Notes under the pieces: generated by a model
Database searches by the model: none
The model's input: only the letters and a program-made list of their open reading frames with translations
Told to the model about the DNA's origin: nothing
Made by a program: the position numbers and the translations under genes
Part shown: piece after piece, positions 1,555-18,800 of the stretch
Position numbering within the stretch: the first letter of the stretch is position 1
How the letters are laid out: each line of letters begins with the position of its first letter
Virus record (IMG/VR): IMGVR_UViG_3300029822_000863
Location: 1 to 42,909 of that record
DNA length: 42,909 nucleotides
Direction: 5' to 3' (one strand)
DNA from: a virus

Positions 1555-4425
1555 TCACTTTTTTGATTTTAATTTTGTTGTACGTTTTTCACGTGGGCCC
1601 CCGCCGAAGAAACTGTCCATGTCCCCTAAAGTATTTCGGATCGTTCGCTTCATTCTATACAAATCGCGATCGGTTTCAAGCACACTCTCTGCCTTCTTTC
1701 TCTTTGCTGTTTTTGTAAACGGCTTGCGTTTTGTTTGTCTGAATGTCGGTATACCACCGTCACGCGCCAACGTTTTGGAGTTCAAACCGCGTGGGATTCC
1801 TTTACGCACGGACGTTTTACTCGATATCGGTTTACTCGATGCGGTTTTACTAGATGTGGTTTTACTCGATATCGGTTTACTCGATGTGCTTTTCCGCGAG
1901 GTGGTTTTACTCGATGCGGTTTTACTGGATGTGCTTTTCCGCGATATGGCTTTACTCGATATCGGTTTACTCGATGCGGTTTTACTAGATGTGGTTTTAC
2001 TCGATATCGGTTTACTCGATGCGGTTTTACTGGATGTGCTTTTCCGCGATATGGCTTTACTCGACATCGGTTTACTCGATGCGGTTTTACTAGATGTGGT
2101 TTTACTCGATATCGGTTTACTCGATGCGGTTTTACTAGATGTGGCTTTACTCGATGTGGTTTTACTAGATGTGCTTTTCCGCGAGGTGGTTTTACTCGAT
2201 GCGGTTTTACTAGATGCGGTTTTACTAGATGTGGTTTTACTCGATATCGGTTTACTCGATGTGCTTTTCCGCGATGTGGTTTTACTCGATATCGGTTTAC
2301 TAGATGCACGCTGCCGCTGCGCGCGTGATCGGACACCAATACTCAATGCCCCCCCACCTCCACCACCAGTCGCGGTGCCACCATCCGTCCCACTCGAGTC
2401 ACCTGGCGTCGCGTTTCCGGAAGCTTGTCGCACAAAAGCAGTTTTTGACCGATTGGAGACGCCCTTCGAAATTGTCTTAGAGATATTCACCGGAGTGGAC
2501 GAGAACATCAGCTCGAGATCTTTAGCCGTTCCACCTTTTAAAGCATTTCCGACATCAGCAACGGCTTTTGCGTCTCCAGCCACGAGTTCAGCTATCTCAG
2601 TTTTCGTTGGCAACTTGCCATTGTCTACTATATATTTTACAATGGGGGATTCTAAAATTTCAGGGTGCCGTTTTGCAGCAATTTGAGCATACTGCACCAC
2701 TTCTTTTGATATTCCCACCCGTTTCGTGACCTCGTACGCCGTGCCGATTTCGATGAGGTCCCTGACATCTTTAACTCTGCCCCCATGCATGAGGTCTATC
2801 TTGCCGTCCTTGAGTGTCGTACCGCCTGCGAACTTCCTGGCAGACTGTTCCTGCAGCTTCATCATTTTCACAGAATCTGCTTTTATGGACTCCATACCCT
2901 TGAATCCAAACGCAATGCCTGATTCAGGTCTGTATCCAACTCCCTCTGCCGCCTCTATCGTGCCTTTAGCTGTTTTTTTATGTGAGAATACTTCAATGCC
3001 CTTTTCCCACTTATCATTCATCCTGAACTCGATTTTTGGTGCTGTTTTTTCCCCGGTTATTCTGTAATTCACCCCCTCTTTAAACCCATTCGCGGTTGCA
3101 TTTTTTCTAAACATCGAGACGAACTTATCTACGGAGTTGACAGATATTTCAATGTCTTTTGGTGTCCGTGAAAAGTATCCATCCATCTGCAGTTTCTGTG
3201 GAACTGAACCATAAACTTGAATGTCCCTACCGACAAGTCTTCCTGTTTTGCTGCCATAATCCTTGATTGTTTGCTTTACAATCGGTTTCATATCAGCCGC
3301 GACGTGCGCGCTTAACACCTCAAGCTCTTTGGGCTTTGTTATTGGAGATTTCTGCTTGTACGCAGTTTCCGCGATCTTTTTACCCGCGGCAAAGTAGTCC
3401 TGCTCGAGCTGGTCAAATTGCTTTAACGTCTTCTCGAAGGCTTTCGTGTCCGCTTTAGTGAATGCCTGCACCTGTTTTCCTTCGAGCATCTTTTTGTCTG
3501 CCGACAGTGTGCCTTTTTGGAACTTTCTAGAAGATTTTGAGTACGAGACGATTGGTTTCTTTCCTATCGAGGCAGTATAACCAAGGTTTATATCCCGCAC
3601 TGCAGCAGCTTCTCCTGGAGTGACCTCTTGAAGCTTCGTGGATCTAACATGAATTGGGTTGATTTTTTTAACGCCCCTGCCTAAACCTTCCATGAACGCG
3701 AGACTGGTTGCGAATCTTATGGGATCGGACGTCACGGATTTTGATATCATACCCGCGCCTATCGGCATTGACGGGAGTATAGTTTTTGGTTTCTGAGCCC
3801 ATCGCTCAACCCCCTTCGATACCCCACCGACCATCGATGGCATGTCGGTAACATCATACACACCTTTCACAACCGAACCAACGACCGGGAGACTATCAGT
3901 CACACGCACCGCCGCGTCTTTTCTCGTCACCCTCCCAAGATAAGCAGACGCGGCTTTTCCGCGATCATCCAGCCACTCGGATGCCTTCGAGTACTCAAAT
4001 TCGCGCTTAGGTTTGTACGAATCAACAACGTCCTGCATTGGACGGCTCAATTCCTCGCCTGTAGCCAGTCGCTTTCCCGCGTCGTATAACAGACTAGCTT
4101 TCTGGACAGCCGTGTATTTTTTCGCGTTCGTTTGTATCTGGGACGGGGCACGTCTGGCGCGTTCCGCTTCCACTGCGCGCACCTGGGTGGACAATCTCTG
4201 ATCTTGCTGCCGGTATGCAGATGAGCCACCCGGTGTTTGTGACCAACTCGCGTTGCGCGCCGCCTGCGCTTTCTGCACTTCCCGCTGTCTCGCATAGTTT
4301 GACCCGGACGAACTGCCTACCACCCCACCGGACGCATTCCGGCTAGCTGTCGTTTTTGCAGCATGCCCGCCGCGTGCCTCCGATAGCGACACGTGCGTTT
4401 TTCCTGAGCTATCGACGTATGCCAT
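1555..4425 (-). CDS. 956-aa basic protein with a putative AbiEii/MenT-like nucleotidyltransferase domain and an S/K/T repeat tail
   Basis: Long ORF with RBS; motifs VYGS-x11-RTPKDIEI, GIEVF and GRVKDVRDL; 33 pentapeptide repeats near the C-terminus. Confidence 0.85.
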   Translation of the reverse strand: MAYVDSSGKTHVSLSEARGGHAAKTTASRNASGGVVGSSSGSNYARQREVQKAQAARNASWSQTPGGSSAYRQQDQRLSTQVRAVEAERARRAPSQIQTNAKKYTAVQKASLLYDAGKRLATGEELSRPMQDVVDSYKPKREFEYSKASEWLDDRGKAASAYLGRVTRKDAAVRVTDSLPVVGSVVKGVYDVTDMPSMVGGVSKGVERWAQKPKTILPSMPIGAGMISKSVTSDPIRFATSLAFMEGLGRGVKKINPIHVRSTKLQEVTPGEAAAVRDINLGYTASIGKKPIVSYSKSSRKFQKGTLSADKKMLEGKQVQAFTKADTKAFEKTLKQFDQLEQDYFAAGKKIAETAYKQKSPITKPKELEVLSAHVAADMKPIVKQTIKDYGSKTGRLVGRDIQVYGSVPQKLQMDGYFSRTPKDIEISVNSVDKFVSMFRKNATANGFKEGVNYRITGEKTAPKIEFRMNDKWEKGIEVFSHKKTAKGTIEAAEGVGYRPESGIAFGFKGMESIKADSVKMMKLQEQSARKFAGGTTLKDGKIDLMHGGRVKDVRDLIEIGTAYEVTKRVGISKEVVQYAQIAAKRHPEILESPIVKYIVDNGKLPTKTEIAELVAGDAKAVADVGNALKGGTAKDLELMFSSTPVNISKTISKGVSNRSKTAFVRQASGNATPGDSSGTDGGTATGGGGGGALSIGVRSRAQRQRASSKPISSKTTSRKSTSSKPISSKTTSSKTASSKTASSKTTSRKSTSSKTTSSKATSSKTASSKPISSKTTSSKTASSKPMSSKAISRKSTSSKTASSKPISSKTTSSKTASSKPISSKAISRKSTSSKTASSKTTSRKSTSSKPISSKTTSSKTASSKPISSKTSVRKGIPRGLNSKTLARDGGIPTFRQTKRKPFTKTAKRKKAESVLETDRDLYRMKRTIRNTLGDMDSFFGGGPREKRTTKLKSKK
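1810..2304 (-). repeat. Coding tandem repeat, 33 x 15 bp (S-[SR]-K-[PTAS]-[ITAMS])
   Basis: Units such as TTTACTCGATATCGG, TTTACTAGATGTGGT and TTTTCCGCGA... counted from the translation, in frame with 1555..4425. Confidence 0.95.
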
Positions 4426-4440
4426 ATTGACGCCCCAACG

Positions 4441-4710
4441 TTACGCCTTTTTGATGCTCAATTTTGCGGTCGGTGCACTGGACTTCACGAGTTTATACGT
4501 TTTGTCCTTATCTGCGGCCGTGCACCCGACACGCAGGCTCGCTGTGAATTTATATCCAGCCACGAGCTTCTTTATCGGTGATGTTGTCGCACTCCCAATC
4601 TTTGATACTTTGGCTCGGTGCAGCGTAGCTTCGCGTTTGGTTTTGAACGGGCCATAATCAAACGATGCAGTTATAATGTAGTCAATCGATATATTCTGTT
4701 TATTTGCCAT
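4441..4710 (-). CDS. Small basic protein, possible DNA-binding virion protein
   Basis: 89 aa, K-rich, has its own GAGGAG RBS and an upstream TATA-like element. Confidence 0.7.
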   Translation of the reverse strand: MANKQNISIDYIITASFDYGPFKTKREATLHRAKVSKIGSATTSPIKKLVAGYKFTASLRVGCTAADKDKTYKLVKSSAPTAKLSIKKA

Positions 4711-4842: not shown

Positions 4843-5457
4843 TTAGAATTGCCCTAACGAGTAATCGGAATCGACAACTGACTCAGGCGGAACACCACCG
4901 TCATCCACTGTGAAAAATGTGTTTTCGCGTTGTTTTATCACGGGGAAGAATATGTACAGCAGAGTCGTTAGGAATGCTGGTAGCATTAGCGTATAATACA
5001 TCAGCTTGACACAGAAGTGCCGGAAACCAGAAGATTCCCACACTTCAGACACATTGACGATTGCACTTGCATCCAATGCCCCAGTAATTGCGTCGGCCGC
5101 AATACCCACGCCATACACGAGGAACGTCGATATGACAATTCCAATTACCATCATGAACAGATACTCGAAATACAGTTGGGCGGGTATCTCAGACCCCTTC
5201 GATCGCTCGAATGCATATATAATCAACCCGGCGATGACGAAAAATGGGGCGGCCTTCCACATATCAAGCATTGTTTCAAATGCATTTTTTGTATCATCGG
5301 ACACGACGCCGTCGGCAATCATTGCATTAAACCCATCGATCGGGACATTGAACGAAGTTGAAAACACGATGTACATCAACCCGAAAACGAAAAACGCCGT
5401 CCCCAACACGAGGATTATCATAGACCCCGCAGTTTCGTCCGAATCAAATTTTTTCAT
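4843..5457 (-). CDS. Multi-pass membrane protein
   Basis: About four hydrophobic segments; likely start MKKF at 5457. Confidence 0.75.
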   Translation of the reverse strand: MKKFDSDETAGSMIILVLGTAFFVFGLMYIVFSTSFNVPIDGFNAMIADGVVSDDTKNAFETMLDMWKAAPFFVIAGLIIYAFERSKGSEIPAQLYFEYLFMMVIGIVISTFLVYGVGIAADAITGALDASAIVNVSEVWESSGFRHFCVKLMYYTLMLPAFLTTLLYIFFPVIKQRENTFFTVDDGGVPPESVVDSDYSLGQF

Positions 5458-5470
5458 TGCATCCACCCAC

Positions 5471-5923
5471 TCAAACGAACATGTCAACGAGGCTCTTTCG
5501 GGCGCGAGCCGACACAGCCATCCTGACGACCTTGGTTTTCGATTTCGCCTTGTCGATGCCTGCCTTCACCGATGTTTTGAGCGGGGCGCGCGTTGTTTTC
5601 GGCTTCGGCTTAACCTCGGATAATTTTTTCGCCTTCCTGACCATCCCTGCGCGGATGTCAGCAGTCGGTATCAATTTCGATTCACAAATCGCGAAAACGT
5701 CATCGAACGACAACGATTTTGCAAGTTTGCGCACGATAGACGCTTTTTTCTTATACGCGACCATTTTTTCTGTGTCGTAATCATAATAGACGAGTTTGAT
5801 TTTCCGACGCTTTGCAATTGCCCTGAGCGAATCTACACTAACCCGGTCAAGCATTTTACGCTTTGCGTCGTTCTCGTTTTTAGCAAGCTTCACGTCTCGG
5901 ACAAAATTTCCCACCGTACCCAT
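5471..5923 (-). CDS. Basic protein with a HeH/Rho-N-like motif and K-rich tail
   Basis: SVDSLRAIAKRRKIKL motif; 150 aa, very basic; GGTGA RBS. Confidence 0.7.
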   Translation of the reverse strand: MGTVGNFVRDVKLAKNENDAKRKMLDRVSVDSLRAIAKRRKIKLVYYDYDTEKMVAYKKKASIVRKLAKSLSFDDVFAICESKLIPTADIRAGMVRKAKKLSEVKPKPKTTRAPLKTSVKAGIDKAKSKTKVVRMAVSARARKSLVDMFV

Positions 5924-6148: not shown

Positions 6149-7111
6149 TCATGCAAACCCCGCGGACACTTTCTTAGCATACCCGTAGTTCTCTCCGTTG
6201 GCTTCACATGCCGATTTCAACGACGGATATATGCCAGCTTCGACGTCGCGCATGAGCTCCTGAATACGCGCCTTTTTGGTAACTTTTTGTGGAACCTTTG
6301 AATTCGCGCCGGAACCACCCGAAGAACTTTTATCAACCATACCATCTAGAATTGTCTCAATGTTAGCCAATTGGAGCTTGCGCAACTGGATTTGTCGAAT
6401 CCGCTCATATACTTCCTCGAGTTCGTTCGGGCATTTTCCGAAACATACTTTATTGTATATCGCACGCTTTGTTTTCAGGTACGGGAAGATGTTCTTCCTC
6501 GATTGGCTGTTGTACATCTTCTGCACCTCGGTGAGCCGGCCAACGGCAACGGACTTCCCGATCCGCTCCAACTGTTTTGAGAATATCGGTTTGTCCATGA
6601 CGATTTTAAAACGGAGGATGTTTCGCCCCTTCACATCGATCCAATCACTATCCGGAACTGACATGAAGATTATGTTATTGTCAGTCCGCATCGTTTGTAG
6701 GACATCGTTCATCGCTTCGTTTGGCTTGGATTGCCACTTTCGGTTGTTGTATGCAACTCCAAAGTCATCGAACACGAACACGCCATATTTGCTCGTTGGA
6801 CGGCGCATGATGTTGATTGTCCGAAGCACCTGCTCAGGTCCAATGGTCGCGAGATGCCCGATGTTGAAATAGTCAGACGGCACCCCACCGTACTTGGAAG
6901 CAAGCCCAACCGCACACCAACACGCGGTATAGAGAGTCGCATTTGACTTTCCCATACCAGGCTTTCCCTCGAGCAGACAAATGACATTCTGATTTTTTGA
7001 GTGGATGATGATATCGGTAAACACTTCAGCGAGACAGATATTGTCCATCTCGCCGTCCTGTATTACATTGCCCTCGATCCCGCTCAATGACTCATTTTCG
7101 AATTTACCCAT
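6149..7111 (-). CDS. P-loop ATPase (viral morphogenesis/packaging type) with possible C-terminal HTH
   Basis: Walker A GKPGMGKS, Walker B GVFVFDD; lies among membrane protein genes. Confidence 0.85.
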   Translation of the reverse strand: MGKFENESLSGIEGNVIQDGEMDNICLAEVFTDIIIHSKNQNVICLLEGKPGMGKSNATLYTACWCAVGLASKYGGVPSDYFNIGHLATIGPEQVLRTINIMRRPTSKYGVFVFDDFGVAYNNRKWQSKPNEAMNDVLQTMRTDNNIIFMSVPDSDWIDVKGRNILRFKIVMDKPIFSKQLERIGKSVAVGRLTEVQKMYNSQSRKNIFPYLKTKRAIYNKVCFGKCPNELEEVYERIRQIQLRKLQLANIETILDGMVDKSSSGGSGANSKVPQKVTKKARIQELMRDVEAGIYPSLKSACEANGENYGYAKKVSAGFA

Positions 7112-10127: not shown

Positions 10128-10391
10128 TTATTCTTCGCCGCCTCTGCTCCTGAGCCTGTAGAGTGCACTGATAGCGACTCCGATGAAGACGATGATGATG
10201 ACCACCTTCATGAGGGTTGCTCCACTGTTCCACAGATCAGCACCAGTCGGGGCACCAGCGAAATCACCGGACTCGTTTACTGGAAGAGCCTTGCTGACTT
10301 CTTCGCCCATCCCAGGAGCCAAATAGAAAATCACAACGATGATGAGCAAGCCTACTGCTAAGCCTATCACTTTCTGCATATCATCTGCCAT
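10128..10391 (-). CDS. Putative major capsid protein, two-helix hydrophobic hairpin (fusellovirus/His1-like architecture)
   Basis: 87 aa, two hydrophobic helices, N-E-S sequon in the loop, basic C-terminus, own promoter with strong RBS. Confidence 0.65.
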   Translation of the reverse strand: MADDMQKVIGLAVGLLIIVVIFYLAPGMGEEVSKALPVNESGDFAGAPTGADLWNSGATLMKVVIIIVFIGVAISALYRLRSRGGEE

Positions 10392-10748: not shown

Positions 10749-10880
10749 GTGAACTACCACCGAGCTAAAGACTCGGCGGCTTCTTGGTTCATTCCTCCCT
10801 CTACTGAGGGCAAGTCCCCAAGCTCCTCCCCGCGTTCCGCAGGTGTTGAATAGGTTTCAAACCCCTATTAGGTTTTGATC
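10749..10880 (-). ncRNA. TnpB omegaRNA scaffold (3' part); guide is the flank starting ATTTACATTCCTTGCATTCG
   Basis: Structured region between the tnpB end and RE; helices covary with the copy at 18900-18995; 5' end unknown. Confidence 0.75.
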
Positions 10881-11969
10881 TATGAGAGAGAATTTTTTAA
10901 TATTGATAGCGGCGTTTATATCTCTGTCGTGCTTTGTTTTACAGGCTGGGCAAGTCCATTCTCTGTCTTTCAAAGTCAAATCTGACTTGTGATATCCACA
11001 ATCTGAACAAAGTTTAGAGGAAGGCTCAAATCTTCCTATCCTTAAGATAGTTTTTCCTGCCCACTCAGCTTTATACTCTAATTTCGTTACAAAGCTACTC
11101 CATGCAGAATCACTTATAGCCTGAGCTAAGTGGTGGTTTTTAATCATTCCTTTAACATTCAGAGTTTCCAACGCTATAGCTTGGTTCTCGCTTATGAGTT
11201 TAGAAGAGAGTTTATGCTGGAAATCGTTTCTCTGATTGCTTATTTTCTCATGGAGTACAGCAAGTCTTTGTTTAGCTTTTTCTCTGTTCTTAGAACCTTT
11301 CTGTTTTCTTGATACTCTTTTCTGAAGGACTTTAAGCCTTTTTAGAGAGCTTTTCAAGTACCTAGGATTCTCTATCTTTTCACCTGTAGAGAGCACAGCA
11401 AAGTCTTTGATTCCTACGTCTACACCTATTGTTGTGACTTCGGTGAAAGGTTGCTTCGCTGGGAGTTCTGCACCATTTTCAACGAGGATACTAATGTAGT
11501 AATCTCCTTTACAAGTCTTTGATATCGTTGCTGTTTTCAACGCACCTTCAAAGTGTCTGTGCAGAACGGCTTTAATCTCTCCAATTTTAGGCAGCTTAAC
11601 AGTGTTGTTTTCAAAGTCAACGCTATAGTGCTGCGGCACTGGAAAAGATTGTATTGGATTTTTCTTAGACTTAAACTTAGGAAATCCTGTCTTCTCTCTG
11701 AAGAACCGAGTGAAGGCAGATTCAACCTGTTTAGTCATTCCCTGAAGAGACTGAGAGTTAACTTCCCTCAACCACTTATTAGAAAGTTTTAAAACTGGAA
11801 TTAACTTGTTTAAGTCAAACCTGGAGATTGATTTACCAGTTTGCTCATATGTTTTAACTTTTTGATCAAGTGCCCAGTTATAGACAAAGCGACAGCTACC
11901 TATATGCTGATTAAGTTTACCAGCTTGGGCTTCTGTCGGATATAGTCTAAACTTGAACGCTTTCATCAT
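10857..11969 (-). CDS. tnpB: TnpB RNA-guided endonuclease, apparently intact
   Basis: MKAFKFRLYP start, RuvC GVDVG / ALETL / DRDINAA, Zn finger CSDCG...CPAC. Confidence 0.95.
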   Translation of the reverse strand: MMKAFKFRLYPTEAQAGKLNQHIGSCRFVYNWALDQKVKTYEQTGKSISRFDLNKLIPVLKLSNKWLREVNSQSLQGMTKQVESAFTRFFREKTGFPKFKSKKNPIQSFPVPQHYSVDFENNTVKLPKIGEIKAVLHRHFEGALKTATISKTCKGDYYISILVENGAELPAKQPFTEVTTIGVDVGIKDFAVLSTGEKIENPRYLKSSLKRLKVLQKRVSRKQKGSKNREKAKQRLAVLHEKISNQRNDFQHKLSSKLISENQAIALETLNVKGMIKNHHLAQAISDSAWSSFVTKLEYKAEWAGKTILRIGRFEPSSKLCSDCGYHKSDLTLKDREWTCPACKTKHDRDINAAINIKKFSLIDQNLIGV

Positions 11970-12014
11970 ACATGGTATTATATGCTTTACCAACATATAT
12001 AGTTTTTGGTAAAT

Positions 12015-12410
12015 ATGGAGTATGAGCACAAGAATCACAGTAAGTTTTTGCTTATGTACCATGTTATTTTTGTTTGCAAGTACAGGAAAAAGATATTAGA
12101 ACCACTTAACGCAGAACTTAAACAGACTATTCACGATATTGAAAAAGAGTCTGACTTTGAAATACTGGAAATGGAAACTGACAAAGATCATATCCACATG
12201 TTAATTAAGAGTGAGCCTAAAGTTTCAGTTGTATCTATAGTTAGAAAACTGAAACAAGAGACTACAAATAGGTTATGGAAAAGTCAAGGCAACTATCTTA
12301 AAAGATATTATTGGGGAGAAAAGACTTTGTGGAGTGATGGGTATTTTGCCTCAACTATAGGAAATGTTAGTAAGGAAATAGCTGAGGCATACATCAGGAA
12401 CCAAGGTTAA
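12015..12410 (+). CDS. tnpA: IS200-type HUH (Y1) transposase
   Basis: YHVIFVCKYR, DHIH (HUH), WSDGYF, AYIRNQ. Confidence 0.95.
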   Translation: MEYEHKNHSKFLLMYHVIFVCKYRKKILEPLNAELKQTIHDIEKESDFEILEMETDKDHIHMLIKSEPKVSVVSIVRKLKQETTNRLWKSQGNYLKRYYWGEKTLWSDGYFASTIGNVSKEIAEAYIRNQG

Positions 12411-13087: not shown

Positions 13088-13345
13088 TCAGCGTCGCCCA
13101 CTTCTCCGTTTTAGCGATAACATCGTGAAAATTAACGCCACAACACCAAGAATCATCGCAACGGGACCCAACAAACTGAATGTTGCAGTCTGGACACGCA
13201 CGTTTGAATCGTGTGCCTGTTCATACCCAGTGCCCGATACATTCAGCTGATCATCATTTTCTGACAATACCGCGGGAACATAGCTCATGAATATCGACAG
13301 TACCGCGATCAATACCACAACCGGAATCAAGGATTTCATGCGCAT
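13088..13345 (-). CDS. Second two-helix hydrophobic protein, putative minor capsid protein
   Basis: 85 aa, two hydrophobic helices, N-V-S sequon, basic tail KRRSGRR; same layout as 10128..10391. Confidence 0.6.
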   Translation of the reverse strand: MRMKSLIPVVVLIAVLSIFMSYVPAVLSENDDQLNVSGTGYEQAHDSNVRVQTATFSLLGPVAMILGVVALIFTMLSLKRRSGRR

Positions 13346-14382: not shown

Positions 14383-14571
14383 ATGAAATGGTTTAAACAT
14401 ATTCCGACAAACGCACGACCACACGACCACATACACACGGGAAACGCCGCACACGTTCAAGAAGTCATAAGCGGAGAACTCAGATACATTCCTGTAGTAA
14501 TGTCTCTCAGCCTCATTCTCTGGGGATTCATCGAGTCCACAAGATCTGAAAATGCAAGTATCTGGAGGTAG
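14383..14571 (+). CDS. Small hypothetical protein
   Basis: GGTGA RBS, ends 4 nt before the adhesin start. Confidence 0.45.
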   Translation: MKWFKHIPTNARPHDHIHTGNAAHVQEVISGELRYIPVVMSLSLILWGFIESTRSENASIWR

Positions 14572-14575
14572 AGGC

Positions 14576-17026
14576 ATGAGAAAAGTTATTATCCTCTCTC
14601 TCTTCCTTTGCTTCTTATTTCTTCCTTCTGTATCTTTAGCTTATGAAGATACGGCAGAAAGATATACTTCAGATATCTCAAATTATTATTCCACCACTAC
14701 TTCAAATAGTGGTGCTGGTGCTGTATCTTCCTTAGTCGATCCTTCAAATACGCAAAACACCGTAATTAAATTACGTTCTTCTCTTAATACAAATTTAGTT
14801 GGGTCATATACTCAAAAAACGTATTTGATTCCAAAGACTACAATGTCACCTTATTACTTTTCATGTATTTCTACGGGCTTTGAACATGAAGATTATTGGG
14901 ATTATCCGAATCGCATAAAAATGGGTTTTATTTTTCAAGTTCGCAATCCTTCGGATAATTCTATAATTGCTCAATTTTCACCTTTGGAAACACACAACTA
15001 TAATTATCCTCTAAAAATTGAAATAGTAAAATCGGGGACGTCTTACGAATTATATATAAATGGTTCTAAAATAGAAACCGTATCAAATACTCAACCTACA
15101 TATTCTGGTAATGTTTATTATTGTCCAGGGACCGTTATTTATAAATTAACGTCTAGTAGTGGTGTTACAGGCAGTGGCTCGGTATATTATGACGATCTTA
15201 CCGACTCTTCAATAATAGGTATAAAAAACACATATACCGAGTCATCCGCTAACGTATTTTTTACTTGGTCTTCTCAATTAATGAGAAGTTATACAGATCA
15301 GCAAAAAATAACTTTATATTCCCTTACTAATCCTTCAAACGCTGGCCTTGTCACTTCTTGGAATATTCCTCAAGACGATAATTCCACAACTTCAGAACAT
15401 GGGTATTTTTCGTTTTCACGATCTCAAATAATTGGGGATAACTTCGGACTTTATCTACTCGAAATGACGAGGGGAGATGATATTCTTACAGATCAATATT
15501 TCTATTACGATCAACTTTCAAACCCGAACGGATATCCAGAACTCCTATTTTTAGGAGAGTCCAGCGTCAAAACTGAAATCCGAGACGATAACCACAACGG
15601 CGGGGAAATCCAAGGCGGAGGATCAGTATATCTATATCCGAAAATCAAAGAAGACGCTGCATACAATTTCACATACAATATACTAGAAGCCCCCTACAAA
15701 ATCCAAACAGAATTGACAAACATCTACAACAATACACTGATAAACAGCACAACAATTCATTACACCGGGCTCTCCAACCAAAACTACGGAATCTCAGTGG
15801 ACGGCGCAGACGCAGGCAGCACAAACGGAGCCGACACATTCAGCTACACATTCACAGACTGGGGCACAGAAAAAAATCACATCATCTCATTTGCCCCCGA
15901 CTACACCATCGCGGGAGTATGGGGTGAGGTAAAAAACTCCGAAACACAGCAGGGGATCAAATCCGCCACAGTATCAATATCAGGGGCTAACTTTTCAAAG
16001 ACACTCTACACCGACGACAACGGATTGTATTATCTGACAAAGGGGATGGAGCCCGGCAAAACATACACAATCACGGTTTCAAAAACAGGATACGCGACTC
16101 CACCGTCCCAGACTGCAATAACCGCAGACGGAAGCACCACGAGACAAGACTTCTACATGGACAAAATACCAGGGGTCGATGGCGAGGGACTATATTATTC
16201 ACCACACAATGTTCGATTTGTAGTCACCGATCGGTACCTATTCGAACGATACGACGCGAACGTGACGATATCCGGCGAAAATGTGACAACAGAAACACAG
16301 CGCACAGGAACAGACGGGGTATGCGTTTTCAAAATGACAGAAAACACTAGATATGAAATTGTCACAGAATATAACGGGATGAAGCAAACCGACTACATAT
16401 CACCCATCGAATATTCATACTACATAATACTCGATGCTACAAAAACGTCGTTATTGCCGACGTCACAATTCTATGAGATGTGCAATATAACGATTACAAA
16501 AAACGAATTAAATTCGTCGCACGCCGAAATCACGGCATCATATAGTGACACTGGGTCGGGCACACAAAGCGTATATTTCACACTTGGTAAAACGGATGGC
16601 AATAACACGATGAACGCGCTCGAAACGAGTCCAACTGGTAATGGAAACATGACATACACATTCGTAGTACAGGACTACATAGGCGAAGACTACGTTGTGA
16701 AAGTCAACGTTGACCATAACAAATTTGGAAATGTGGAAAAACAATATGGAGTGAATTTCCCAGGCAGCAAACTGCCATTCACTGGAAATGCAATAATCGC
16801 GCTATGCGTACTGATCTTCTTCGTTGTTGCAATGCAATGGGGAAAGGCAGACGCACATATGGGCGCAGTTTTGATATGTGGACTAGGATGGTGGTTCTAC
16901 TACCTTGACATATTCAGAAAGCTAGGTGACGGCACAAACGCGGTGATCGGCACGGGACTTGGACTTGCGACTGTGTACGCAATATTGAGCATGATAAACA
17001 GGAAACGAGATGAAGGAGGGATATAA
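14576..17026 (+). CDS. Large secreted adhesin/receptor-binding protein with C-terminal 3-TM anchor (fusellovirus VP4-like layout)
   Basis: Signal peptide MRKVIILSLFLCFLFLPSVSLA; S/T/N-rich beta domains with many sequons; carboxypeptidase-regulatory-like repeat (GEVKNSETQQGIKSATV...TITVSKTGY); three terminal TMs. Confidence 0.8.
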   Translation: MRKVIILSLFLCFLFLPSVSLAYEDTAERYTSDISNYYSTTTSNSGAGAVSSLVDPSNTQNTVIKLRSSLNTNLVGSYTQKTYLIPKTTMSPYYFSCISTGFEHEDYWDYPNRIKMGFIFQVRNPSDNSIIAQFSPLETHNYNYPLKIEIVKSGTSYELYINGSKIETVSNTQPTYSGNVYYCPGTVIYKLTSSSGVTGSGSVYYDDLTDSSIIGIKNTYTESSANVFFTWSSQLMRSYTDQQKITLYSLTNPSNAGLVTSWNIPQDDNSTTSEHGYFSFSRSQIIGDNFGLYLLEMTRGDDILTDQYFYYDQLSNPNGYPELLFLGESSVKTEIRDDNHNGGEIQGGGSVYLYPKIKEDAAYNFTYNILEAPYKIQTELTNIYNNTLINSTTIHYTGLSNQNYGISVDGADAGSTNGADTFSYTFTDWGTEKNHIISFAPDYTIAGVWGEVKNSETQQGIKSATVSISGANFSKTLYTDDNGLYYLTKGMEPGKTYTITVSKTGYATPPSQTAITADGSTTRQDFYMDKIPGVDGEGLYYSPHNVRFVVTDRYLFERYDANVTISGENVTTETQRTGTDGVCVFKMTENTRYEIVTEYNGMKQTDYISPIEYSYYIILDATKTSLLPTSQFYEMCNITITKNELNSSHAEITASYSDTGSGTQSVYFTLGKTDGNNTMNALETSPTGNGNMTYTFVVQDYIGEDYVVKVNVDHNKFGNVEKQYGVNFPGSKLPFTGNAIIALCVLIFFVVAMQWGKADAHMGAVLICGLGWWFYYLDIFRKLGDGTNAVIGTGLGLATVYAILSMINRKRDEGGI

Positions 17027-17407
17027 ACGAACGCACAAAAACTTGCATTCTTCGTAATTGCATTTAGTTTAGCCGGTGTGGTGATCAACGAGGCGGGGAT
17101 ATTCGACCCCGTCCAAGTCTACGAGATCAGCGAAGTTGACAATTCGTTTTCGAATGGAATAACCGAAATCGACGGCACAGCATCGGAAAGCGATATGAGA
17201 AACGAATATGATGGGTGGACAATGATATTTAAGACGGTCGGGACATTCATCACGGTACTCGGGGCACTGACTGTCCCGTATCTATACCTAGTCGATATCG
17301 GGGTAAACTCAGCATTTGCACTGGCAATACAGGTAATTGTAAACCTCACGATGTTATGGGGCATCATACAATTCTTGTCAGGTCGAAGCACAAAGGGGAT
17401 GGACTGA
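17027..17407 (+). CDS. Small membrane protein following the adhesin; probable ACG start
   Basis: Frame open from ACG 17027 (NAQKLAFFVIAFSLAGVV...), GGAGGG RBS upstream; two further TMs. Confidence 0.7.
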   Translation, partial: TNAQKLAFFVIAFSLAGVVINEAGIFDPVQVYEISEVDNSFSNGITEIDGTASESDMRNEYDGWTMIFKTVGTFITVLGALTVPYLYLVDIGVNSAFALAIQVIVNLTMLWGIIQFLSGRSTKGMD

Positions 17408-17408
17408 T

Positions 17409-18050
17409 ATGATGAAGAGAATAATATACGTACTCACAGCACTGATACTAACCGGGATTGCACAGGGGGCACCTACACTGGCTGCAAACCCAACACACCC
17501 AATCCAACACGCGGATTGCAATTTCTCATTCACATCGAGTGAGCCGTTCACAACAGCTCACTTTTTTTTCAATGGAAATGAGACTGAGACCACTGGAAAC
17601 AACTGGCACACATTCCAAATGCCAGCAGAAGGAAAATATTATAATGTTTCGGTATACGTAGAAAGTCCAACGGGAAATTCAAAAATGCTATATATGCGGG
17701 GAAGTGTACCAAGGGCAATTGCAAATACAACAGTGGGAAAATTCAACGAAACAGAGTTCAATAAACTATCTGACAATATGGAAAATGGCGACTGGGAGGG
17801 AATGCTCGGAAACAGCATGGCTCCATTCGAGGAACTCATGGGAAAATCAGTATACGTGATACTGTTTTTGATGCCATTCGGGTTGATGTGGAAACGTCAG
17901 GAATTCATGACAATTCCAGTGGTAATCAGCATGATCATCGGATGCATCATAATCGGATATATTCCAGAGCAGTACAAAGCGTTCATCGTATTGATGATAA
18001 TGTTAAGCTTTGCGGTGAATTTGTACATGTTGGGGAGAGATCGTCAGTGA
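17409..18050 (+). CDS. Secreted/membrane protein with signal peptide and C-terminal 3-TM anchor
   Basis: N-terminal signal, beta-rich middle with sequons, three hydrophobic segments. Confidence 0.75.
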   Translation: MMKRIIYVLTALILTGIAQGAPTLAANPTHPIQHADCNFSFTSSEPFTTAHFFFNGNETETTGNNWHTFQMPAEGKYYNVSVYVESPTGNSKMLYMRGSVPRAIANTTVGKFNETEFNKLSDNMENGDWEGMLGNSMAPFEELMGKSVYVILFLMPFGLMWKRQEFMTIPVVISMIIGCIIIGYIPEQYKAFIVLMIMLSFAVNLYMLGRDRQ

Positions 18051-18451: not shown

Positions 18452-18569
18452 ATCACTGTCTCACTCAGTGACAATTTATCATCGCATATACATACTCAAT
18501 ATAGAAAAACCATGCGATTTGTCACGGAACATATGCACAGCAAAATAACCATTTTCAAAAAATCGCCCA

Positions 18570-18653
18570 TGGATCGCGTCGGAGTCGAACCGACTGCCCA
18601 CCAAACCGGACCCAAATTGTGATATGGTGCATTTTCCGTTCTGCCATCGATCC
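18570..18653 (-). tRNA. tRNA-like gene (84 nt, long variable arm, aberrant anticodon arm)
   Basis: Acceptor GGATCGA/GCGATCC-A, D-arm GCA-GAACGGAAAA-TGC, perfect T-arm GTCGG-TTCGACT-CCGAC; anticodon loop only about 6 nt; identity not assignable. Confidence 0.65.
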
Positions 18654-18800
18654 ATGTTGTGTAGGGGATGTTTGTTTTGAGTCGCCTCGCCCTCACGACT
18701 GCACATCTGCATGTATATATTGGATTCCAAAGCATAAATAAGTTTCGATTGAAAAACAGCAGTATGCATGGTCATGAAAAACAACATGGAAAATGACCAA

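Follow-up and report, generated by a model that had tools for sequence, protein, structure and literature searches.

A putative nucleotidyltransferase of DUF1814 layout inside a giant protein of presumed Methanosarcina viruses

What would a virus do with a nucleotidyltransferase embedded in the middle of a giant protein that is encoded beside its structural genes, and on what would such an enzyme act? The question is raised by the IMG/VR virus record IMGVR_UViG_3300029822_000863, a stretch of 42,909 bp with a completeness estimate of 72%, which we have analysed as a whole and refer to below as the window. Its giant open reading frame, P0001, encodes 956 amino acids (aa) at 1555..4425 on the minus strand (the strand of all its parts given below), with a basic low-complexity N-terminus, a conserved N-terminal module, a nucleotidyltransferase domain, a stretch of Ser/Thr/Lys repeats and, C-terminal to these, a conserved motif. 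A sequence-only reading of this DNA had proposed an enzyme of the AbiEii/MenT type at 2740-3900 (aa 176-562), and all of the motifs that it listed are found in the protein at the positions it gave. We believe, with a probability of roughly one half, that the domain is a catalytically competent Pol-beta nucleotidyltransferase of a new family, with the layout of the DUF1814 enzymes and a nucleic-acid 3' end as its acceptor, most likely host RNA or tRNA.

A conserved domain and its active-site motifs

The conserved domain extends from aa 290 to 625 (2551..3558); in the model, its nucleotidyltransferase core is preceded by a helical N-subdomain and followed by a C-terminal helical lobe. The core with the helices of motifs III and IV (ca. 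aa 399-568, 2722..3231) is the part common to the most distant homologs (profile positions ca. 100-270). The signatures of the superfamily are present, with hG[GS] as V-Y-G406-S407, [DE]h[DE]h as D424-I-E426-I and, on a strand further on, the third carboxylate in I-E478-V. The first of them is motif I (aa 404-407, 3205..3216), at the end of strand beta1. Motif II (aa 420-427, 3145..3168) reads R420-T-P-K-D424-I-E426-I, with an arginine of the DUF1814 type four residues ahead of the first catalytic acid. Here the sequence-only reading needs an amendment, as the arginine and the D-x-E that it described are present, but the string is R-T-P-K-D-I-E (R-x3-D-x-E), with a proline two positions before the aspartate, and not R-x-T-x-D. 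The third acidic strand, G-I-E478-V-F (aa 476-480, 2986..3000), has the equivalent 'AVDIH' in distant homologs. The motif III helix, L524-Q-E526-Q-S-A-R530-K531 (aa 524-531, 2833..2856), is followed by motif IV, G-R550-V-K552-D553-V-R-D556-L (aa 549-557, 2755..2781), which includes a +DxxD pentad.

The combination of the four motifs arose in 24 of 20,000 shuffles of the giant protein, and stronger evidence comes from the conservation of the residues. A first homolog search recovered 15 metagenomic relatives of 805-1526 aa, and the domain profile, searched against 1.84 billion cluster representatives (clusters at 50% identity), retrieved 136 clusters at E <= 1e-3, 50 of them at E <= 1e-30. Over ca. 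125-133 homologous domains, conservation is 100% for G406, 99% for S407, 97% for R420 and 99% for D424 in motifs I and II, 98, 97 and 98% for E526, R530 and K531 in motif III, and 93, 99, 97 and 96% for R550, K552, D553 and D556 in motif IV. Positions 426 and 478 are always Glu or Asp (Glu in the close clade, Asp in the distant one, where the strings are 'DIDI' and 'AVDIH'), and the acidic residues that the sequence-only reading had singled out thus held up as regards their conservation in homologs. The sequence around the catalytic positions is not conserved in the same way across the 136 clusters. This is the pattern of an active site. A nucleotidyltransferase fold that has lost its catalysis and is retained as a purely structural remnant would be hard to reconcile with catalytic positions 93-100% conserved over 136 divergent clusters whose surroundings are not, and we give this alternative next to no weight.

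The AlphaFold2 model of aa 290-625, built on a 46-sequence alignment, reached a predicted local distance difference test score of 89.8 and a predicted template modelling score of 0.89. It contains the alpha-beta-alpha-beta-alpha-beta core of the superfamily, running through beta1 (model residues 113-116), a helix, beta2 (136-140), another helix and three strands, after which come the helices of motifs III and IV. In the model the G-S pair closes beta1, the D-x-E starts beta2 and E478 sits on the last strand (model residues 183-192). The search of this model against known structures, which the sequence-only reading had suggested as a check, returned Pol-beta nucleotidyltransferases nearly throughout, and the matches to such folds cover model residues 82-313. 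With Foldseek against the PDB the top consisted exclusively of nucleotidyltransferases, beginning with JHP933 (4ok0, E 4.9e-3, probability 0.99) and MenT3/TglT (8xhr, 6y5u) and continuing with Cid1, poly(A) polymerases, cGAS, DncV and Pol beta; in terms of E-values these matches are weak (5e-3 to 5e-2), but their probabilities go up to 0.99-1.00. A structure scan independent of Foldseek, covering 48,161 chains, had as its leading matches TM1012 (Z 7.3, 130 residues), LnuA (Z 7.2, 142 residues), the Megavirus poly(A) polymerase (Z 7.2, 148 residues), JHP933 (Z 7.1, 173 residues), MenT3 (Z 6.1, 179 residues), MenT1 (Z 6.1, 150 residues) and MenT4 (Z 5.6, 162 residues). Along similar lines, the Atlas structure rows included three AbiEii clusters with template modelling (TM) scores of 0.52-0.54. 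On the strength of the model and these searches, we have very little doubt that the domain adopts the nucleotidyltransferase fold.

Sequence comparisons with known families were silent by comparison. The domain region had no match in hidden Markov model (HMM) scans with Pfam, PHROGs, PADLOC or NCBIfam, none in PDB sequence searches with either the single sequence or the profile, and none when the domain and a distant homolog (P0086) were compared by tblastn with 50,697 phage records. A scan of IMG/VR added one further locus, and our literature searches turned up no account of this domain, nor any of the giant protein in spindle-shaped viruses, whether of Methanosarcina or others. Across the family the domain is internal to proteins of ca. 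600-2600 aa, truncated fragments aside. The 136 clusters are mostly of unknown origin, and the few whose surroundings were examined lie on virus-like or mobile-element contigs. The domain represents a new, widespread and unannotated nucleotidyltransferase family that is fixed inside giant proteins. For some 136 clusters of such proteins that today carry no annotation, the domain provides a first biochemical handle, and its profile can be used to annotate archaeal viromes.

Among the viral structures of BFVD, the best match was A0A5P9U643_2, an unnamed protein with a 1041-aa model (E 4e-6, TM 0.53), whose suffix '_2' suggests that the model covers part of a longer protein. The second was A0A514K2U2, a 1125-aa protein of a Nitrosopumilus spindle-shaped virus (E 3e-3, a weak match), and the domain may be common to the giant proteins of other spindle-shaped archaeal viruses.

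Probable kinship with DUF1814 and the candidate acceptor

The motifs allow the family to be placed more closely. DUF1814 has been defined by a long spacer between motifs I and II (x = 15, against a Pol-beta consensus of x = 9-13), an arginine in motif II, a lysine in motif III and a +DxxD motif IV, of which the arginine is absent from other Pol-beta enzymes and the +DxxD motif is specific to the family (Dy et al., PMC3985639). In the viral domain this spacer has 16 residues (S407 to D424) against 15 in AbiEii, R420-x3-D424 reproduces the spacing of AbiEii R63-x3-D67, and K552-D553-V-R-D556 corresponds to the +DxxD pentad. We propose that K531 corresponds to the lysine that AbiEii and MenT3 have in motif III; K531 is 22 residues away from D553, as K189 is from D211 in MenT3 (PMC7450476), and it pairs with the AbiEii lysine in an hhalign alignment that is itself non-significant. 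The stretch K523-L-x4-A-R530-K531, to be compared with the KLxAaxxR type, is part of the helix formed by model residues 235-246, and K523 is not conserved in distant members. When hhalign was run in greedy mode against 23 archaeal AbiEii sequences, all four motifs were aligned in the same order, with a probability of 1-3% that is not significant.

Several observations weigh against this kinship. PF08843 gave no match to the protein or the domain (E <= 0.1 to 1), to the window in six frames (E <= 10) or in 46 family members (E <= 0.01). The hhalign probability against AbiEii was 0.3-3% (P 0.005-0.04), and PF01909 did about equally well (P 0.007). The language-model features of the Atlas favour instead the small nucleotidyltransferases of phages that resemble PF19244 (0.95). 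A search for PF13338 (AbiEi_4) in the six-frame window (E <= 10) found no partner gene of the AbiEi type. Finally, P422 occupies the position of S78, the regulatory phospho-acceptor of MenT3 (PMC7450476), which is auto-phosphorylated under the control of the antitoxin (PMC11375011); a proline here makes regulation of the S78 type unavailable at that position. The failure of hhalign carries little weight, because AbiEii compared with MNT itself gives P 0.6 by this method. What stands of the proposal of an AbiEii/MenT-like enzyme is therefore the fold and the active-site signature (from the model, the fold searches and the motifs of PMC3985639), but not membership in PF08843. Since no HMM library recognises the domain, we regard it as a new DUF1814-like family rather than as a member of PF08843.

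If the active site works as this layout suggests, D424, E426 and E478 would hold the metal ions, while G406-S407 and R420 would position the triphosphate of the incoming nucleoside triphosphate (NTP). K531, R550, K552, D553 and D556 of the C-terminal helical lobe would bind the nucleotide, and a nucleotide monophosphate would then be passed to an acceptor hydroxyl. We infer that this acceptor is the 3' end of a nucleic acid, most likely a host RNA or tRNA modified during infection, on the basis of the analogy with MenT and AbiEii and of the strongly basic, low-complexity flanks that the giant protein has on both sides. RNA or tRNA in particular is put forward tentatively, at rather less than even odds.

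A different acceptor is the main competing explanation. The nucleotidyltransferase would be active, but on the ends of the viral DNA by tailing or repair, on proteins (its own, those of the virion or those of the host) by nucleotidylation, or on a glycan by transfer of a phospho-alcohol, and the resemblance to DUF1814 would reflect a shared mode of NTP binding and nothing else. LicD-type enzymes are an example of phospho-alcohol transfer to glycans. Enzymes that modify small molecules or tail polymers match at the Z level of the DUF1814 proteins (LnuA 7.2, ANT(2'') 6.2-6.5, poly(A) polymerase 7.2), the Atlas features side with the phage PF19244-like enzymes, and the BFVD matches include catalytic subunits of poly(A) polymerases and a LicD protein. 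Besides, the giant gene lies among genes for glycoproteins and membrane proteins, and the extra acetyltransferase domain of a distant homolog, described below, suggests that giant proteins accumulate modifying enzymes. Against this, the +DxxD motif IV and the motif II arginine are described as specific to DUF1814 (PMC3985639), the characterised DUF1814 members act on tRNA 3' ends (PMC7450476), and the basic flanks suit a nucleic-acid partner. On balance we consider an acceptor of another kind somewhat unlikely.

The giant protein and its genomic setting

Homologous proviruses in two Methanosarcinaceae genomes, among the loci fetched from public collections, point to Methanosarcina as the host. 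Two proteins of 85-87 aa in the window (10128-10391 and 13088-13345), each with two hydrophobic helices, fit the type of the capsid proteins of spindle-shaped viruses, and Methanosarcina spindle-shaped virus 1 (Eurekaviridae) has two copies of such a protein according to the ICTV (PMC12451623). Scanned with PHROGs, neither the two putative capsid proteins nor the adhesin block gave a match. The Methanosarcina viruses that share the conserved module are presumed here to be spindle-shaped.

In the relatives, the genes follow each other as an adhesin with a CarboxypepD_reg domain, membrane proteins of 109 and 213 aa, a multi-span protein of 214 aa, a basic protein of 80-91 aa and the giant protein, with a P-loop ATPase upstream and a glutaredoxin gene downstream on the opposite strand. 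In the window, the 89-aa basic protein (4441..4710, minus strand) lies directly upstream of the giant gene; it belongs to no known family, has no transmembrane segment and is conserved in seven loci. Further upstream, on the same strand, are the 214-aa protein with several membrane-spanning segments (4843..5487), which precedes the small basic gene in the relatives too, and a 320-aa P-loop ATPase (6149..7111), which has weak matches of the Zot, nSTAND3 and DnaA-like kinds and which relatives keep too, the distant locus L046 among them. The adhesin-like protein of 824 aa (CarboxypepD_reg) and the 109-aa and 213-aa membrane-protein genes (14552..18050, plus strand) are found inverted and ca. 9 kb away from the giant gene, whereas in loci L001, L005 and L007 they lie immediately upstream of the genes for the 214-aa, 89-aa and giant proteins. 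A TnpB gene of the IS605 type (10857-12062, minus strand, E 7e-32) sits in between the structural module's two halves and, together with the displaced and inverted block, suggests a rearrangement. The giant gene keeps its synteny with the genes for the ATPase, the adhesin and the membrane proteins in relatives down to 24-29% identity, the level at which L046 retains the ATPase, the adhesin and a protein like the 213-aa one. This synteny confirms the observation of the sequence-only reading that the giant gene stands beside the structural genes.

The location of the giant gene within this conserved module of Methanosarcina viruses suggests that the protein is probably made late and possibly packaged. 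We infer an association with the virion as a possibility that we ourselves put at rather less than even odds. A bolder version appears to us improbable. In it, histone-H1-like basic tails would let the giant protein be packaged together with the viral DNA; on infection it would enter the Methanosarcina cell, where the MenT-like domain would extend the 3' ends of host tRNAs, or repair or cap them against host defences. If it were true, the modification of tRNAs would lead to a takeover of host translation, and DUF1814 toxin chemistry would for the first time be seen in an offensive, virus-borne role. Given the weak structural match to the Nitrosopumilus virus, a packaged tRNA-modifying giant protein could even be shared by spindle-shaped archaeal viruses. 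The sole tRNA gene called in the window by ARAGORN, a tRNA-Cys with anticodon ACA (18569-18654, minus strand), is potentially of note next to an enzyme that possibly modifies tRNA.

Within the giant protein, conservation is highest in the enzyme domain, and the flanks are variable across the family. The N-terminal module (aa 100-290, 3556..4128) is Gly-rich and weakly hydrophobic, and a motif search of the 956-aa protein placed DSLPVVGSVVKG in it at aa 177-188 (3862-3897). The 'weakly hydrophobic helices' noticed upstream of the motifs from the sequence are below the transmembrane threshold; the highest 19-residue Kyte-Doolittle mean is 1.06, and the giant protein has no predicted transmembrane segment. 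For aa 1-290, fold prediction gave low confidence (predicted local distance difference test score 42.9) and a model that is not usable. The Ser/Thr/Lys repeats make up the C-terminal third and differ in length among homologs; they are encoded by a tandem array with periods of 15, 45, 60 and 105 (1814..2306), within a Ser/Thr/Lys-rich segment of ca. aa 700-880. The Pfam family HC2 (histone H1-like protein), the only family that the library scans recovered in the protein, matches them at aa 707-874, a match that is compositional. The conserved C-terminal motif (aa 916-951, 1573..1680; R-x3-N-x-L-G-x-M-D-S-F-F-G) is followed by a Lys/Arg/Thr tail. An open frame of 355 aa antisense to the repeat array (1619-2686, plus strand) is most likely no gene but a shadow of the repeats.

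Some of the relatives differ in ways that are informative in their own right. In L046 (10001-13618), the 1205-aa homolog P0119 has a GNAT acetyltransferase domain at aa 489-569 (E 1e-9) upstream of the nucleotidyltransferase at aa 769-918, the sole match when five very large homologs were scanned with Pfam, which indicates that a giant protein is not limited to a single modifying enzyme. A separate 165-aa gene (L047:3676-4173) adjacent to the distant homolog P0086 weakly matches PF19244 (poly(A) polymerase catalytic) and represents a second, small nucleotidyltransferase in the same element. Methanosarcinaceae decode UAG as pyrrolysine. In a provirus of a Methanosarcinaceae metagenome-assembled genome (L009:8568; CAVSHT010000009.1), the enzyme domain of the homolog has a single in-frame TAG, in a poorly modelled loop, and this could be a case of read-through or of a decaying provirus. 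In L005 (10001-14353), the 1450-aa protein P0016 has the same N- and C-modules as the giant protein of the window, and its centre is repeat-rich, probably helical and without the enzyme domain.

P0016 bears on two more explanations, both of them touched on in the sequence-only reading. One is that of a classical growth-arresting toxin of the AbiEii/MenT type, restrained by the 89-aa protein and acting as a provirus addiction or superinfection-exclusion module. The motif set is DUF1814-like, the family does have small antitoxins (MenA1 is of 7.4 kDa; PMC11375011) and the 89-aa gene is always immediately upstream of the giant gene in close relatives. However, L005 retains an 80-aa gene nearly identical to that of L001 even though the enzyme domain is absent from P0016; no HMM match to AbiEi was found in the window; and the domain occurs inside proteins of 600-2600 aa in all 136 clusters and, truncated fragments aside, is never a free-standing toxin of 250-300 aa. 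Moreover, the antitoxin-controlled Ser/Thr phospho-acceptor of MenT3 and MenT1 is replaced here by proline. The 89-aa protein is thus unlikely to be a dedicated antitoxin, and we regard a toxin-antitoxin pair as a whole as very unlikely.

The other explanation is a carrier similar to polymorphic toxins, in which an N-terminal module of the pre-toxin TG type would deliver an exchangeable cargo, as do the MuF and ejection-protein toxins of phages. The different, repeat-rich centre of P0016 between the same N- and C-modules is what such a carrier would show, and the Atlas features of aa 96-300 include PT-TG (0.85), MafB (0.84) and P22 gp16 (0.80), all of them under the reliability line and no more than a lead. 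Nevertheless, the swapped centre was seen in this one relative only, and the resemblance to the pre-toxin TG motif found no backing from PF14449, which had no match in the window (six-frame, E <= 10), in 16 full-length homologs (E <= 1) or, at E <= 0.001, in 301 Halobacteriota genomes, of which one has a homologous provirus. The enzyme domain is constant and internal rather than C-terminal, with variable flanks, the reverse of the situation in polymorphic toxins, and no candidate immunity gene co-varies with it. We consider a carrier of this type extremely unlikely.

Comparison with known systems

The virion-packaged effector carriers of phages, such as MuF-type polymorphic toxins and the ejection proteins of P22, are also large proteins encoded beside structural genes and carrying an enzyme domain, and the divergent centre of P0016 adds to the parallel. 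Here, in contrast, the enzyme is central and conserved, and the likeness is one without demonstrated relation in sequence or fold.

Among the nucleotidyltransferases themselves, the catalytic domains of viral poly(A) polymerases and the phage enzymes similar to PF19244 share a viral origin with the domain and are its best language-model neighbours (0.94-0.95). They differ in that there is no HMM match to them, and in that they are free-standing (ca. 160 aa in phages) or part of the mRNA machinery of eukaryotic viruses; we know of no role for them in archaeal viruses. TM1012, LnuA, ANT(2'')-Ia and the HEPN-associated MNT (PF01909) lack both the motif II arginine and the +DxxD pentad, and their alignments span the core alone, leaving the C-terminal lobe uncovered.

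The DUF1814 enzymes, i.e., AbiEii of S. agalactiae and L. lactis, MenT1-4 of M. tuberculosis and JHP933 of H. pylori, have in common with the viral domain the Pol-beta fold with a C-terminal helical lobe, the hG[GS] motif I, the third acidic strand and, if K531 is its counterpart, a motif III lysine borne on a helix. In structural alignments with the model, JHP933 and MenT3/MenT4 also cover the longest stretches (162-180 residues). The differences are considerable. The viral domain is inside a 956-aa protein and not a free toxin of 200-300 aa, the locus has no AbiEi or MenA partner gene, ca. 20 residues separate motifs III and IV (21 between K531 and D553) against ca. 11 in AbiEii (R180 to D192), and there is an extra helical N-subdomain (aa 290-375). 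Taking all of this together, we think it fairly likely that DUF1814 is the closest known group, and the domain would function like a DUF1814 enzyme and is probably a distant relative. In bacteria these enzymes are abortive-infection and toxin-antitoxin toxins, in which the extension of tRNA ends blocks translation. The presence of a DUF1814-like active site in a structural-module protein of methanogen viruses would possibly mean that here it is the virus that uses this chemistry against the host, and not the host against the virus.

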